From: a virus
Taxonomy: Duplodnaviria > Heunggongvirae > Uroviricota > Caudoviricetes
Virus record (IMG/VR): IMGVR_UViG_2698536414_000003
Direction: 5' to 3' (one strand)
DNA: 12,007 nucleotides
Shown here: one piece after another, positions 1-11,583 of the stretch
How the letters are laid out: every line of letters starts with the position of its first letter
Position numbering within the stretch: position 1 is the stretch's first letter
Notes under the pieces: model-generated
Told to the model about the DNA's origin: nothing
Databases searched by the model: none
The model's input: the letters and a program-made list of their open reading frames with translations, nothing else
Program-made: the position numbers and the translations under genes

Positions 1-45
1 CCAGCTCTGAGCCTCAAGACGATCCTGAATGTAATAAGCGTTCAT
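1..45 (-). CDS. N-terminal 15 codons of an early-left gene that continues leftward out of the window; possibly lambda Ea10-like
   Basis: Minus-strand ATG at 43-45 reads [15 protein letters not shown] and runs off the window edge. The Ea10 resemblance is from memory only. Confidence 0.35.
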
Positions 46-120: not shown

Positions 121-411
121 TTAGTGATTCAGGCCGTTACCGCGTCCGTCGAGAAAAACTTCCACGAGCAAATCACGGGTATAAGTGCGCTCGATGCCGC
201 GATGCAGATAAAGCCGTCCGCGTAAATTAGCTGATGCAGTCCAGGTACCATCTTTGTGTTTGACCAGCATTCCTGGCATGACCGCACCTCGATTAACGGT
301 CTGCGTTCCATAATGTTGATGAACCATAAAAACTCCTGCCCGTAAGCTGGGCTGCTGAACATATAGAGACTTCTGCGCGTATTCAGGCGGTGGATGGCCG
401 CCGGTTGTCAT
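121..411 (-). CDS. Hypothetical 96-aa protein, first gene downstream of the predicted PL (the position N occupies in lambda)
   Basis: Longest minus-strand ORF between PL and the next gene, about 190 nt downstream of the predicted PL start. It is basic and Gly/His/Arg-rich but has no recognisable N-type arginine-rich motif. An overlapping alternative frame exists at 129-362. Confidence 0.4.
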
Positions 412-599
412 AACTAAGCCGCCTCGTTGAAGCGACTAAGGTATGAAATGTTGAGTTAATTTCAGCTGGTCACACCGACGTTCACGCGTCCGTTTCACCC
501 CTCGCACTCCCCGAAGCCTGCTGAAATTCAAACTGCGGATCTAAGCGGTCATCGCAACGGTGAATCAGGTAGTTGCCGTATCGTTGTGTTGTTGCGATG

Positions 600-640
600 A
601 ACTTATTTAAAACTATAGTTGTTTTATCGTCAACAACAAA
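600..640 (-). promoter_or_regulatory. PL-like leftward promoter with overlapping operator (OL)
   Basis: On the minus strand: TTGACG (plus 628-633), a 17-nt spacer, then TTAAAT (plus 605-610). The spacer ATAAAACAACTATAGTT closely matches the PR spacer AAAAACAACCATAGTTT. Further GTTGTTTT/CAACAAC motifs lie at 616-660. Confidence 0.55.
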
Positions 641-773
641 AGTTGTTTTATTGGTTGTTTTAGATATAACTGGTTGTATTTAGGATGGATTTATTTTGTG
701 ACTTGCATCGCACAGCGATAACTGAAGCGAGGTCGTGGTGGTTTTTTGAACGGTTTGTGTGATGAGGGGAGGC

Positions 774-801
774 AAAAGAAAACCCGGCACGACGGCCGGG
801 G
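774..801 (-). terminator. Intrinsic terminator closing the repressor-cargo operon
   Basis: Minus-strand hairpin CCCGGCCGTCGTGCCGGG (plus 783-800) followed by TTTTCTTTT, immediately after the stop of the 805-1668 gene. Confidence 0.6.
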
Positions 802-804
802 AAA

Positions 805-1668
805 TCATTTCGCATCTACAATAAATAACCTGTTTATCTGGCCTTTTTTAACAGTAGCCTTTGCGGTTATAGTGAATACTGCAGATGGATCACCTTTGGT
901 TGATATATATGCACTAAGAGCTCTAATATACGGGTTATTCTTCTTTCCTGCAGCTGGATCGCTAATTTCAGCAGTGATTCTCTTTTTTGAGTCATCACCA
1001 TCTAAAATTATTTTAGCTGTCATATTTTGTGCATCAAATTCTGTAAGAAAAGCACGATACTCACGAAGACCGAGAACTTCATCATCATCAAGCCTATCAA
1101 TTTCAGCTTTATCTCTCTCGTTAACTTTTAGAAGGCAGCCGTCAACATTTGTTGCAACACTTATCTGATCGCAAGTATTACCAATAGGTGATACTGCCTG
1201 CCTTACAGAGGGGCGAAGCTCTACAGCCATTCGGTCAATCAAAGAGATCAACTTATCAATGGTTCCAGCATCCTTGTTTCCTAGTGCCTCTATGGCCTTT
1301 TCAAGTGACTGCTGCAAAGCTTTCATTTCATCTTTCTTGTTAGAATTTCTCGCAAAAATATATTGTAGTATTGCGCCAAGTATAGTTGCGGCGATCCCCG
1401 AGAACAACTGGTTCTGAGTGGCGAAGTTAAGAACTGCTTCAAGAGTAAAGCAGTTAGCTTTTGCTTCGCGTGCGTAAACCTTAACTTCCTGATAATTAAT
1501 GTATTTACTATATTTTTGTGTAACAGAGAAAGAAGCTGCTGTTGAGAGAACTTTAGAAAAACCCTTTAGGGATTCTCCTAGGCAGTTCAAATCTATTTCA
1601 TGATTTAAAGCATCTTTTCCGTCATACCTAAGAGAGATTTTTATATCCTGTAAAGCGTCACAATCCAT
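805..1668 (-). CDS. 287-aa hypothetical protein with one central transmembrane helix; immunity-region cargo at the rexAB-equivalent position; candidate exclusion/abortive-infection gene
   Basis: Clean ORF with a GAGAG Shine-Dalgarno 66 nt downstream of the repressor stop. The DNA is visibly more AT-rich than its flanks. Hydrophobic segment [18 protein letters not shown] at about residues 88-105 (plus 1354-1407). I recognise no family. Confidence 0.7.
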
Positions 1669-1734: not shown

Positions 1735-2424
1735 TTATCCATGTTTCCTGTACGTCTGGGGCATGCTCCCAATAACCTTACCGAAGATGAACACCCGGTT
1801 CATCTCGTCTTTCTCGATCGGGTCCCACGGTGAGTAGCTCTTGTTATCAGAGATAACCAGCAGCTTATCCTTCATCATTTGCAGGCGCTTTACATGGGCT
1901 GTGTCGTCGTACAGAAACGCATAGATACCATCACCGTCGAAAGATTTAACCGTGATATCAACGAACAGCAGATCACCTGGTTCGATCGTTCCTGACATGC
2001 TGTCACCACGCACGTTAATGATGCGGATATTTTCCGCCTTCCTACCATCGAACATGTGACGAGCATCGTCAAACGAGTACTCAACCGAGCGTAGAACTTC
2101 TACAAACTCACGGTTGATGACTCCCGGCCCAGCACTGACTTCTATATCAAGAACGTCAATCTTGAAGTATTTGGAATGGCTGACAGTTGATTGTATTGGT
2201 TGCACTGTACTGTCTGACATATTTCCAACGCCAGAAGATAACCATTCTGCGCGCACACCCAAAGCGTTCGCGATCTCCACGATTTTAGTTGTTTGATTAG
2301 CTTTCCCTGTTTCGATTTTCTGAATAGCAGCCTGGCTAACCCCGACCAAATCCCCAAGCGCCTTTTGTGTAAGGCCTCGCGCTAATCTGGCTTCTTTAAG
2401 TCTTTCTGAGAGTGTTGTTTTCAT
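1735..2424 (-). CDS. cI: CI-type repressor (N-terminal XRE helix-turn-helix, C-terminal S24 LexA-like autopeptidase)
   Basis: HTH segment LTQKALGDLVGVSQAAIQKIETGK; Ala-Gly cleavage site in VSAGPG; GDSM serine motif and HVKRL lysine. Start taken at the ATG at 2424 (MKTTLSERLKEA), which looks leaderless as in lambda PRM; the longer ORF to 2490 would run through the operator. Confidence 0.85.
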   Translation of the reverse strand: MKTTLSERLKEARLARGLTQKALGDLVGVSQAAIQKIETGKANQTTKIVEIANALGVRAEWLSSGVGNMSDSTVQPIQSTVSHSKYFKIDVLDIEVSAGPGVINREFVEVLRSVEYSFDDARHMFDGRKAENIRIINVRGDSMSGTIEPGDLLFVDITVKSFDGDGIYAFLYDDTAHVKRLQMMKDKLLVISDNKSYSPWDPIEKDEMNRVFIFGKVIGSMPQTYRKHG

Positions 2425-2771: not shown

Positions 2772-2784
2772 CGCTCTTTAACAA
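2772..2784 (+). promoter_or_regulatory. boxA-like element (nutR candidate)
   Basis: CGCTCTTTAACAA between cro and the next gene matches the boxA consensus. No clear GC-rich boxB hairpin follows. Confidence 0.45.
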
Positions 2785-3454: not shown

Positions 3455-4384
3455 ATGGCAAACACTGCTGAGATATTCAATTTTCCAGTGCCGGATGCGG
3501 CACAAAAGGAGCCGCGCGTGGCAGATCTCGATGATGGTTATACGCGCATTGCAAATGAGTTGCTGGAAGCTGTGATGCTGGCCGGATTAACACAGCACCA
3601 GCTTCTGGTCTTCCTAGCTGTCATGCGCAAAACATATGGCTTTAATAAAAAACTGGATTGGGTGAGCAACGAGCAACTGTCCGAATTGACCGGGATATTG
3701 CCGCACAAGTGTTCTGCTGCAAAAAGTGTTCTGGTAAAGCGTGGGATTCTTATTCAGAGCGGGCGGAATACCGGCATTAATAATGTGGTCAGTGAATGGT
3801 CAACATTACCCGAATCAGGTAAGAAAAATAAAGTTTACCTGAAAGAGGTAAATTTACCTGAATCAGGTAAAAAAAGTTTACCCAAATCAGGTAAAGACGT
3901 TTACCCGAATCAGGTAAACACAAAAGACAAACTAACAAAAGACAATATAAAACCTTTTTCGTCCGAGAATTCTGGCGAATCCTCTGACCAGCCAGAAAAC
4001 GACCTTCCTGTGGAGAAACCAGATGCTGCAATTCAGAGCGGCAGCAGGTGGGGGACAGCAGAAGACCTGACCGCCGCAGAGTGGATGTTTGACATGGTGA
4101 AGACCATCGCGCCATCAGCCAGAAAACCGAATTTTGCAGGGTGGGCTAACGATATCCGCCTGATGCGTGAACGTGACGGACGTAACCACCGCGACATGTG
4201 CGTGCTGTTCCGCTGGGCATGCCAGGACAACTTCTGGTCCGGTAACGTGCTAAGTCCGGCCAAACTCCGCGACAAGTGGACCCAACTCGAAATCAACCGT
4301 AACAAGCAACAGGCAGGCGTGACAGCTAGCAAACCAAAACTCGACCTGACAAACACAGACTGGATTTACGGGGTGGATCTATGA
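3455..4384 (+). CDS. O: Replication initiator O (lambda O-like, iteron-binding)
   Basis: GGGAGG Shine-Dalgarno then ATG at 3455; starts MANTAEIFNF...VADLDDGYTRIANELLEA, like lambda O (MTNTAKILNF...VADLDDGYARL). Ori iterons lie inside the gene; stop overlaps the P start (ATGA). Confidence 0.85.
   Translation: MANTAEIFNFPVPDAAQKEPRVADLDDGYTRIANELLEAVMLAGLTQHQLLVFLAVMRKTYGFNKKLDWVSNEQLSELTGILPHKCSAAKSVLVKRGILIQSGRNTGINNVVSEWSTLPESGKKNKVYLKEVNLPESGKKSLPKSGKDVYPNQVNTKDKLTKDNIKPFSSENSGESSDQPENDLPVEKPDAAIQSGSRWGTAEDLTAAEWMFDMVKTIAPSARKPNFAGWANDIRLMRERDGRNHRDMCVLFRWACQDNFWSGNVLSPAKLRDKWTQLEINRNKQQAGVTASKPKLDLTNTDWIYGVDL
3806..3958. repeat. Replication origin: five iterons plus an AT-rich tract inside O
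   Basis: TTACC(C/T)(G/A)AA(T/A)(C/G)AGGTAA copies at 3806-3822, 3835-3851, 3854-3870, 3878-3894 and 3901-3917, each with inverted ends, followed by an AT-rich stretch at 3918-3958. Confidence 0.8.
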
Positions 4385-8458: not shown

Positions 8459-8628
8459 TGGCTACACCGCTTATTCGTGTCATGAACGGACACATCTACA
8501 GAGTACCAAATCGTCGTAAGCGTAAACCTGAGCTGAAGCCATCCGAAATACCAACACTGCTCGGATATACCGCCAGCTTGGTTGATAAAAAATGGTTGCG
8601 ACTGGCAGCAAGGAGGAGTCATGGCTGA
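8458..8628 (+). CDS. ninE: NinE
   Basis: 56 aa [56 protein letters not shown]; TAATG overlap with ybcN. Confidence 0.75.
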   Translation: MATPLIRVMNGHIYRVPNRRKRKPELKPSEIPTLLGYTASLVDKKWLRLAARRSHG

Positions 8629-8911: not shown

Positions 8912-9270
8912 ATACTTACCACATCACACTACCCTGGCCGCCGAGCAATAACCGCTACTACCGCCATAATCGAGGGCGCACGCACATCAGCGCAGAAGGG
9001 CAGGCATACCGCGATAACGTCGCCCGAATCATTAAAGGCTCAATGCTGGATATCGGTCTGGCTATGCCTGTGAAAATCCGCATTGAGTGCCACATGCCGG
9101 ATCGCCGTCGCCGTGACCTGGATAATCTGCAAAAAGCCGCTTTTGACGCACTCACTAAAGCAGGTTTCTGGCTGGATGATGCTCAGGTCGTTGATTACCG
9201 CGTTGTGAAGATGCCTGTTACCAAAGGTGGGAGGCTGGAACTGACCATCACTGAACTGGGAGATGAATGA
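8908..9270 (+). CDS. rusA: RusA Holliday junction resolvase
   Basis: 120 aa [26 protein letters not shown]...[32 protein letters not shown], close to E. coli RusA. GTG start overlapping the ybcO stop. Confidence 0.9.
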
Positions 9271-9407: not shown

Positions 9408-9492
9408 AGTCAGAGATAACAATCAACTAATACTGTTTTGTTGATTTTTGCTTGTAATTGGCGTTTTGGTCTGATTTTTGTGGAGTAAGTTG

Positions 9493-9927
9493 ATGCGTGA
9501 TATTCAGATGGTTCTTGAGCGTTGGGGGGCGTGGGCGGCTAATAATCATGAAGATGTGACCTGGTCGTCCATTGCCGCCGGATTTAAGGGACTGATCCCC
9601 GAAAAAGTAAAATCACGTCCACAGTGCTGTGACGATGATGCGATGGTGATATGCGGGTGCATAGCCCGCCTTTACCGGAACAATCGCGATCTGCATGACT
9701 TGCTGGTTGATTATTACGTGTTGGGGGAGACGTTCATGGCGTTGGCACGGAAACATGGGTGCTCTGACACCTGTATAGGTAAACGCCTTCACAAAGCGGA
9801 GGGGATTGTTGAAGGCATGCTGATGATGCTGGGAGTGAGGCTTGAGATGGATCGGTATGTTGAGCGTGAATTGCCGGGAGGGAGAACCTCTGTATTTTAT
9901 CAGCGAAAAAATAGTTTACGATCGTAA
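9493..9927 (+). CDS. Q: Late-gene antiterminator Q (phage 82 / 933W-type)
   Basis: GGAG Shine-Dalgarno then ATG at 9493 ([19 protein letters not shown]), Cys-rich zinc-binding-like segment, followed by terminators and the tRNA cluster. Confidence 0.8.
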
Positions 9928-10368: not shown

Positions 10369-10444
10369 GGCCCTTTAGCTCAGTGGTGAGAGCGAGCGAC
10401 TCATAATCGCCAGGTCGCTGGTTCAAATCCAGCAAGGGCCACCA
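10369..10444 (+). tRNA. ileZ: tRNA-Ile (anticodon CAT, ileX-like)
   Basis: Cloverleaf folded by hand: 7-bp acceptor GGCCCTT / AAGGGCC, D-stem GCTC/GAGC, anticodon loop CTCATAA (CAT at 10402-10404), T-loop TTCAAAT, CCA encoded. Near-identical to E. coli ileX as I recall it; the CAT anticodon alone cannot exclude Met. Confidence 0.85.
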
Positions 10445-10451
10445 TCACATA

Positions 10452-10528
10452 CCGCCATTAGCTCATCGGGATAGAGCGTCAGCCTTCGAAGCTGGCTGTG
10501 CGGGGTTCAAGTCCCCGATGGCGGTCCA
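10452..10528 (+). tRNA. argN: tRNA-Arg (anticodon TCG)
   Basis: Acceptor CCGCCAT / ATGGCGG, anticodon loop CTTCGAA (TCG at 10486-10488), T-arm CGGGG TTCAAGT CCCCG, CCA encoded. Confidence 0.8.
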
Positions 10529-10541
10529 TTATCAGCATCAT

Positions 10542-10618
10542 GCGTTGTTAGCTCAGTCGGACAGAGCAATTGCCTTCTAAGCAATCGGTCACTGGTTCGA
10601 ATCCAGTACAACGCGCCA
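10542..10618 (+). tRNA. argO: tRNA-Arg (anticodon TCT)
   Basis: Acceptor GCGTTGT / ACAACGC, anticodon loop CTTCTAA (TCT at 10576-10578), T-loop TTCGAAT, CCA encoded. Confidence 0.85.
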
Positions 10619-10702: not shown

Positions 10703-11218
10703 GTGAGCTTACGGAGTGGTCAGTGTGACTTTCTCTGTGGGCAGATCGCTCCCGGGCGTTGGCTCACCCACCCAAAGGAACGTCACGATGTTTGTATTTT
10801 TGGTAAAAAAGCCCGCCGAGCGGCAGTGGAAATTAAAAAGTTTGAGAAACGTGATCTGGCACAGGCGGTTATTAATGCTGCCTATCTGGTGGCCTATGCA
10901 GATGGTGAATGTGAGGCTTCAGAGAAAGTGAAGATCGAGCAGGTCTTGCGTAACCAGCCTGCGTTGTCCGCGTTTACGTCAGAAATTAATGCGATTAGCG
11001 CAACCATTATCGGTCAGCTGGATACGAACTTTAAAACTGGTCGTCGAGCGGCATTGCGTGAAATTGAAGATGTGAAACACGATACGCGTGAAGCGGAAGA
11101 TGTGCTGGATGTGGCGGTGGCCATTGCGGAGGCAGACGGCGAAATTGAGCCGGAAGAGCGCAAGGTGCTGGAAGAGATTGCCGGTGTTCTGGGTCTTCGT
11201 CTGGAGAATCACCTGTGA
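10703..11218 (+). CDS. TerB-like domain protein; start uncertain (possible -1 frameshift from the ATG at 10788, or a GTG start near 10826)
   Basis: Two ADG-containing motifs typical of TerB-like domains (LVAYADGECEASEKVKIEQVL and VAIAEADGEIEPEERKVLEEIAGVLGL). The frame has no internal ATG; the only ATG with a good Shine-Dalgarno (AAGGAA, ATG 10788) is in another frame. Confidence 0.55.
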   Translation: MSLRSGQCDFLCGQIAPGRWLTHPKERHDVCIFGKKARRAAVEIKKFEKRDLAQAVINAAYLVAYADGECEASEKVKIEQVLRNQPALSAFTSEINAISATIIGQLDTNFKTGRRAALREIEDVKHDTREAEDVLDVAVAIAEADGEIEPEERKVLEEIAGVLGLRLENHL

Positions 11219-11382: not shown

Positions 11383-11583
11383 TTTTTTTATTTGCTGTTT
11401 ATTAAAAACACTTCTGCATGGTGAATCCCCCTGTGCGGAGGGGCGATCAGCAACCAGGTATATGGGATAATCGCGGATTCAGGTGCTGATACTGAATTCA
11501 CCGGGAGGCACCCGGCACCATGCTTTGCCACAAAAGTGTTGTTTCTGTTTTTCTCAAACTATCATCGTTATCCCTTTATTTCC

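Follow-up and report, generated by a model that had tools for sequence, protein, structure and literature searches.

The subject of this report is a stretch of 12,007 nt from the Caudoviricetes record IMGVR_UViG_2698536414_000003 (the window). Of particular concern is its left end, where the leftward promoter PL, a 150-nt leader and an open reading frame (ORF) at 121-411 on the minus strand follow one another. It covers the early region of an N-less lambdoid prophage. The product of the ORF at the position of N is, judged by its homologues, a member of the KilR family, i.e., a cell-division (FtsZ) inhibitor and a non-regulatory early protein. A first-pass annotation had considered a different antitermination or RNA-processing arrangement at this position. 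For the protein this has to be given up in view of the clear homology to KilR, and a novel antitermination protein is without support. Concerning the leader, our tentative preference, to which we assign slightly less than an even chance, is a non-coding RNA which opens with a 5'-terminal stem-loop and would tune expression of the toxic kil-gam-bet-exo operon without read-through of terminators. In its original form the finding is unremarkable: kilR, an early gene of known toxin-like kind, resides behind a leader hairpin in an N-less lambdoid prophage. The point of interest is the leader, which is very common and occupies the slot of classical antitermination devices.

The first gene downstream of PL

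The ORF of 96 aa at 121-411 (minus strand) is present with the sequence given in the first-pass annotation. Its residues 20-96 match PHROG_294, 'Kil protein for bacterial septation inhibition', with E=1e-38. Database relatives are assigned to PF27398 (KilR, precomputed) and are named 'cell division inhibitor protein'. BLASTP against the experimentally studied KilR of the Rac prophage of Escherichia coli K-12 yields 36% identity (E=3e-12), the alignment beginning exactly at M29; Kil of phi80 is 40% identical and aligned to residues 32-96. The NCBIfam model NF008465, 'FtsZ inhibitor protein', covers residues 29-96 with E=4e-17 and 61.9 bits, which is under the curated cut-off of 92 bits. In homologues from 13 other genera the match is confined to residues 22/33-96. 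K-12 Rac KilR and phi80 Kil are homologous to the window protein across the whole core of 68-73 aa. Two supposedly 'divergent' 95-aa relatives (P0035, P0041) were rejected as frameshifted assemblies.

Because homology begins at about M29 and this codon has its own strong ribosome-binding site, a Shine-Dalgarno sequence (SD) AGGAG at 337-333, 5 nt ahead of the ATG at 327-325, we consider 121..327 (minus strand) as the kilR-family gene proper. It comprises 68 aa, M29 to H96. The real gene start probably is M29, rather than 411. By homology the window KilR would be expected to inhibit FtsZ.

The genomic setting is shared as well. The genes gam, bet and exo are positioned directly downstream of kilR in the leftward early operon (the window holds the start of gam, 1..45 on the minus strand with its ATG at 45; bet and exo then follow in relatives). 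K-12 Rac KilR and phi80 Kil are likewise encoded in a leftward early operon upstream of recombination genes, and in many enterobacterial prophages a KilR-family gene is the first gene after PL, as in the window. Rac KilR, a toxic FtsZ inhibitor, is kept down at the level of its transcript through NusG, a termination factor (PMC5793797). Since KilR is toxic and is held down in Rac, a regulatory leader ahead of kil is to be expected.

Rac differs from the window in two respects. In the window a mini-ORF cassette of 28 in-frame codons is fused to the front of the KilR core; in Rac the repressor gene racR is separated from kilR by further genes and by the small RNA (sRNA) kilS. In K-12 Rac the annotated kilS (L224 4406-4503) has the same orientation as kilR and precedes it by about 175 nt. 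Compared by eye, with no alignment run, kilS does not obviously resemble the leader of the window. Its existence shows that stable RNAs can arise from kil leaders.

The cassette ahead of kilR

By sequence comparison the 28 codons at 328..411 (minus strand) are a conserved leader cassette, consisting of a hairpin and a mini-ORF, that is fused in frame to kil. As a consequence, gene callers report 96 aa. The conserved cassette extends over 376..448 (minus strand) with a hairpin at 437-417, the start of the mini-ORF (MTTGGHPPP) and a hairpin at 402-386. Window positions 448-376 are 95% identical to HK225, compared to just 72% for kil itself; the cassette is 84% identical to that of phi80 and 85% to that of HK639. 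In phi80, HK225 and HK639 it begins a separate mini-ORF of 20-21 codons, whereas in the window the mini-ORF runs in frame into kil. The cassette is found behind N and the annotated terminator tL1A in phi80, behind a terminator hairpin in HK225, and behind a putL-like RNA, two ORFs and a terminator in HK639, where part of the cassette itself is annotated as a terminator. In all three phages it is always positioned just after the first PL terminator.

The hairpin 437-417 (dG -11.2, z -2.67) covers the SD of ATG 411; phi80, HK639 and L235 have a hairpin of different sequence at this position. The part nearest to kil, around 328-360, resembles the kil-proximal 5' untranslated region (UTR) of other genera, GTTCCGC...GGCGAYAAGG. 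The length of this region varies by 1 nt among relatives; hence, no reading frame is kept.

The PL start site and the inverted repeat

PL was read by eye. The predicted -35 hexamer TTGACG is at 628..633 and the -10 hexamer TTAAAT at 605..610, both on the minus strand, with OL operator copies at about 609-680. The 17-nt spacer contains an operator copy and mirrors PR (TTGACT-17-TAATCT). The operator AAAACTATAGTTGTTTT (609-625) is almost identical to AAAACAACCATAGTTTT, the OR copy inside PR. The motif (C)ATC appears 3-7 nt past the -10 hexamer in 56 distinct lambdoid PL leaders from related prophages, and the same succession exists in phi80, HK225, HK639 and lambda. Based on this spacing the transcription start site (TSS) is predicted at 598 (minus strand), the A of CATC.

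The perfect 10-bp inverted repeat described in the first-pass annotation is confirmed. Read on the minus strand the 5' arm, TCATCGCAAC, occupies 591..600 and the 3' arm, GTTGCGATGA, 549..558; the spacer is 32 nt. Its placement at the 5' end of the predicted PL transcript also holds. Of the 5' arm 598-591 would be transcribed, and eight of the ten pairs are available in the RNA from +1 (AUCGCAAC / GUUGCGAU). Given the predicted TSS, nt +1 to +8 would form the stem with +43 to +50 and leave no unpaired 5' tail; i.e., the hairpin would begin within the ~0-4 nt of the mRNA 5' end that characterize a 5'-terminal stem-loop. The pair probability of the stem from +1 is 0.94 vs 0.35 in shuffles (3/1000).

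Distribution and variation of the leader

The 150 nt from A598 to the cassette (449..598, minus strand) constitute a lineage-specific PL leader without annotation. It is situated in the slot taken by nutL-N-tL1A in phi80 and by putL and ORFs in HK639, and has no counterpart in phi80, HK225, HK639, HK022 and lambda. It is present in 18 phage records, all at least 90% identical. Among 5426 complete E. coli genomes 2210 have it, ST131 and O157:H7 strains included, and no annotated feature overlaps it there. Taken together, the phage and genome matches never fall below 80% identity, and most of them reach 95% or more.

Variants of the leader (n=55) were taken from IMG/VR and represent three immunity types: the window type, the type of the relative Perceval in which homology sets in at about 597, and the L025/O157 type in which it sets in at about 564. 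The arms are intact in 54 of 55 variants; among those of the window and Perceval types the sole exception is one singleton with a mismatch. One change turns a pair into G-U, and in six variants an 11th pair is added. The Perceval type retains seven pairs and two wobble pairs despite a different flank. None of the three immunity types has lost the 3' arm; it is conserved also in the L025/O157 type, where the 5' arm is missing.

Further inside, a closed three-branch RNA domain of 72 nt is predicted at 455..535 (minus strand; dG -26.4, z -2.48). Its closing stem, UUUCAGC (530-524) with GCUGAAA (466-460), is invariant across the 55 variants. The commonest variant, U514C, breaks the predicted second (inner) helix. 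The leader as a whole is not unusually stable when compared to shuffles (z -0.54, not significant).

PL leaders of other N-less prophages

More than 120 PL-to-kil leaders were retrieved from other enterobacterial prophages by anchoring on the region of the kil ribosome site. Consequently, kil as the first gene after PL, without N, is a common layout. The short leaders, 28-46 nt long, essentially consist of AUC and a hairpin, for which at least nine sequences exist. Pairing starts at +1 to +13, and no later than +8 in all but one representative. All nine types beat shuffles upon local folding of the first 28-55 nt; the signal is modest with z of about -0.5 to -2.4 per type.

The commonest type, A1, CATCGACAAC-loop-GTTGTC, has CATCG.CAAC...CCGTTG in common with the window. 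A comparison of CATCGACAAC..GTTGTC in A1 with CATCGCAAC..GTTGCG in the window reveals that both arms have changed while pairing is kept. The loops measure 5-9 nt in A1 vs 32 nt in the window, and span 5 to 32 nt overall. A spacing of the arms that varies to this extent speaks against a DNA site of fixed spacing and in favour of a hairpin in the RNA. Compared to the short leaders, that of the window has about 110 nt more and includes the cassette of the phi80 type.

Another structured RNA, class B, was noticed in the PL leader upstream of kil in N-less enterobacterial prophages. It is about 62-86 nt long (L091 1368-1453, L097 1269-1354 and 49 further loci among L225-L332) and, like the short leaders, shares with the window leader the position between the PL start and kil. 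Class B folds into four helices including a pseudoknot, with 97.4% of cells paired vs about 35% when the partners are slid (alignment A5); seven pairs are changed on both sides. It is not in Rfam. Each of the 51 loci has exactly one copy and none has a copy on the PR side (model R2), therefore the layout is neither nut-like nor put-like. The window leader does not match this covariance model: with filters off R2 returned no match at 412-600 on the minus strand. The short 5'-hairpin leaders together with the covariation-supported class B RNA are a comparative set which provides direct material for experiments.

A proposed function of the leader

We propose the following. Transcription would begin at A598 and the inverted repeat would form an 8-bp stem from +1, closing a C-rich loop of 34 nt. 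The folded domain of 72 nt would come next. The 5' stem-loop may hinder the 5'-end-dependent attack by RppH and RNase E and, by doing so, may set lifetime and level of the kil-gam-bet-exo message. The entire leader would then tune expression of toxic kil and would not confer read-through of terminators. The repeat would also straddle a joint formed by recombination of the immunity module with the recombination module.

5'-Terminal stem-loops stabilise E. coli mRNAs, e.g., the 5' UTR of ompA. As in ompA-type stem-loops, the hairpin extends from +1 of the predicted transcript. It differs in that the loop of 32-34 nt is unusually long and the hairpin marginally stable, and a stabilising effect is conjectural.

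Several observations weigh against this proposal. A perfect 10-bp repeat with a spacer of 3-60 nt occurs in 44% of dinucleotide-shuffled windows (mean 0.76), therefore the repeat taken alone is no more than chance. The isolated hairpin is weak (dG -8.6, z -1.16), which is due to the 32-nt loop. The PL start is a prediction. When 90-nt windows are folded, 5'-terminal pairing is significant for the window type and L101 only. The relatives of the L025/O157 type have lost the 5' arm and kept the remainder of the leader, so that the stem is dispensable in at least one lineage. The leader family contains no double compensatory change; its copies are at least 94% identical, which leaves no covariation to draw on. 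MAFFT aligns the hairpins of the window and of A1 ambiguously; hence, no formal count of changed pairs is given for these two. Finally, a read-through device may be needed for the terminators of the PL operon, and none was found.

Another view is that the repeat has no function of its own, having arisen as a palindrome by chance or else as a by-product when the immunity and kil modules were joined by recombination. The frequency of such repeats in shuffled windows and the low z of the hairpin are in line with this, as is the location of the joints: homology to the Perceval-type immunity region starts inside the 5' arm at about 597, and that to L025 33 nt further in, where the 5' arm is lost. 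Yet a palindrome without function would have to be located exactly at +1 and its arms would have to be intact bar one singleton, with the Perceval type keeping seven pairs and two wobble pairs; moreover, related leaders recurrently begin with 5' hairpins of unrelated sequence. We consider a functionless repeat as rather unlikely, though it has to be taken seriously.

A protein-binding site at the DNA level, e.g., one more operator or a target of O, IHF or a CII-like protein, is very improbable. A perfect palindrome adjoining OL certainly invites the thought, and the hairpin loop (565-575, minus strand) has the 11-mer ACCTGATTCAC in common with the iterons of the O gene. However, the arms are unlike the OL/OR operator sequence, the match of the 11-mer ACCTGATTCAC has E=0.39 and is probably due to chance, and arm spacings of 5-32 nt in homologous leaders are unfit for a dimer site.

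N, nut and put

No ORF of the window, from gam to beyond Q, matches an N family in Pfam or PHROGs. The absence of an N gene and of nutL asserted by the first-pass annotation is borne out, because there is no N-family ORF and the PL leader has no boxA/boxB: the best boxA-like match in it is 8/12 and no boxB-like hairpin is shared with the PR side. A scan of the window against Rfam at E up to 1 returned nothing in 1-800. A covariance model of put (R1), built from 12 put sequences, recovered the controls HK022 putL and putR and HK639 putL at 70-92 bits. With filters off and E up to 10 it detected no put in the window leader, after cro, in relatives or in other kil-first leaders. BLAST against HK022 and HK639 likewise gave no put counterpart in the window leader. 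A second copy of the leader does not exist downstream of cro/PR either; its only matches to the rest of the window are 8-11-mers expected by chance. The first-pass annotation had suggested that the repeat could belong to a different antitermination or RNA-processing arrangement. With no put match and no second copy on the PR side this suggestion lacks supporting evidence. RNase III is generally said to need a duplex of roughly two turns, for which a 10-bp stem is short.

As in phi80 and lambda, where nutL-N-tL1 is found, the window leader is located between PL and the conserved TTTCATACC...ATGACAACCGGCGGCCATCCACCGCC cassette, and a consensus boxA is present on the PR side. The window differs from them in lacking an N homologue, boxA/boxB at PL, the tL1A terminator hairpin and a boxB after cro. 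With put of HK022 and HK639 it shares a location directly downstream of PL, structure from +1 and a lambdoid phage without N; relative to the downstream cassette the slot is that of HK639 putL. It differs from put in that it has neither a sequence or structure match nor a PR-side copy, and read-through by it would be conjectural.

One could argue that the 150-nt leader belongs to a third kind of processivity RNA, one that acts in cis and needs no protein, in functional analogy to HK022 put. In place of N/nut and put it would modify RNA polymerase so that PL transcription passes the terminators located after exo and orf61. The leader occupies the exact slot of phi80 nutL-N and HK639 putL, it begins at +1 like putL, the phage has no N, and the 455-535 domain is more stable than shuffles (z -2.48), with an invariant closing stem. 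Further, the PL operon has candidate intrinsic terminators. In the near-identical phage PhiR34_1 (L003) they are at 8582-8604 (plus strand) after exo and at 9179-9197 (plus strand) after orf61. None of the known read-through devices is present in the phage family of the window, and for this reason we retain the possibility as a long shot. Against it stand the negative search with R1, filters off, in which the controls scored 70-92 bits, and the missing second copy past cro/PR, which nut and put do possess; in Perceval, with the same leader, the cro-cII gap is just 24 nt. In addition, the z of the whole leader is -0.54, U514C breaks the second helix and covariation is missing. If correct, this would be a new processivity RNA in a prophage family of about 40% of E. 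coli genomes.

On the PR side an exact consensus boxA, GCTCTTTAACAA, is located after cro at 2773..2784 (plus strand). It has 12 nt, as in rrn leaders, and is kept in 20 of the loci fetched. The first-pass annotation correctly noted the boxA; N-type antitermination as its meaning is unsupported: the boxA is alone without a boxB and is absent in Perceval, a relative with another immunity region, the same leader and a cro-cII gap of just 24 nt. Behind the boxA is a stretch rich in C and poor in G (C15/G6). On the PR transcript the boxA may be an anti-Rho device which relies on Nus factors only.

Rho also figures in a different explanation of the PL leader. Silencing of Rac kilR via NusG reportedly depends on Rho. 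Conceivably, the window leader is a Rho-dependent attenuator in which C-rich segments at 598-569 and 463-434 load Rho and the stem-loop modulates access. The two segments contain C10/G4 and C7/G2, respectively, phi80 has an annotated rho-dependent terminator, tL1B, just downstream of the homologous cassette, and NusG silences kilR in Rac (PMC5793797). However, the C-rich stretches are short, 30 nt each vs the about 70 nt or more, poorly structured, of a rut site, and a G-rich folded domain is inserted between them. Further, lytic growth requires Kil, Gam, Bet and Exo early on; strong attenuation without a relief device would thus be costly. We regard a Rho-dependent attenuator as improbable, and adhere to the tuning leader with a 5'-terminal stem-loop.

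The arginine-rich frame upstream of kil

According to the first-pass annotation the first gene has no arginine-rich motif. This is correct for the 96-aa ORF as drawn. Further upstream in the same frame a KRTRERR run exists, which in the window is cut off by a TAG. This run resembles the lambda N motif TRRRERR. The frame, 436..531 (minus strand), is in frame with kil and could start at TTG 531 or at GTG 498 (MKRTRERRCDQLK...); it reads RLRGVRGVKRTRERR and in the window ends at TAG 438-436. This codon is CAG, and the frame open into kil, in 53 of 55 relatives; this is the reason why Perceval annotates a 'Kil' of 140 codons. In the window and in the plaque-forming phage PhiR34_1 the TAG leaves a peptide of 20 aa.

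One may ask whether this frame, starting at GTG 498, is translated as a small N-like antiterminator which in most relatives is fused to KilR. A GGGGAG is positioned 8 nt ahead of GTG 498, indels among the variants are confined to the region upstream of 498, the frame is open into kil in nearly all of them, and one database gene call (P0010) uses the GTG 498 start. The bulk of the evidence points in the opposite direction. The extended frame has no family match in Pfam and PHROGs at E up to 10, and no boxB-like hairpin is common to the PL and PR transcripts. Over 565-412 the ratio of synonymous to non-synonymous sites is 11:15 in frame vs 6:21 and 10:18 out of frame. By hand count 498-412 has 5 synonymous vs 10 non-synonymous sites, thus purifying selection is not apparent. 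By chance, a frame of 29 codons would be open in about 25% of cases. Lastly, a peptide of 20 aa is too short for the contacts with NusA and RNA polymerase which N requires. The frame 436-531 is probably non-coding, or at least not N-like, and an N-like antiterminator encoded here is hardly credible.

Other features of the window

Upstream of OL/PL an intrinsic terminator at 783..800 (minus strand) closes the transcript of cI and a DUF7946/DUF7947 gene. The latter (805-1668, minus strand) encodes a protein of 287 aa and takes the position of rexAB, in the same orientation as cI and with the terminator behind it. The protein has a weak match to the PADLOC candidate PDC-S42 (E=1.5e-4) and, on this ground, may be a prophage defence protein. 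An S24 CI repressor (1735-2424, minus strand) and a YdaS-type Cro (2529-2759) follow.

Just upstream of OL, at 686-699 (minus strand), is the 14-nt string ACAAAATAAATCCA. It is identical in HK225 and phi80 (L086 2191-2204, L087 1720-1733), and so has remained unchanged in the three phages despite differing operators. It may be a module-boundary linker.

Rightward of cro are a YdaT/CII-like gene, O, P, Ren and then genes of the nin region (NinB, HNH, RusA). The O gene contains four ori iterons, TTTACCTGAATCAGGTAAA, at 3834-3918 (plus strand). Q is encoded at 9478-9927. Past Q and its terminator, in the position where Shiga-toxin phages carry stx, are three tRNA genes (10369-10615), a gene for a TerB-domain protein (10703-11218) and the sRNA STnc100, a full-length match of 104 bits at 11390-11559, all on the plus strand.

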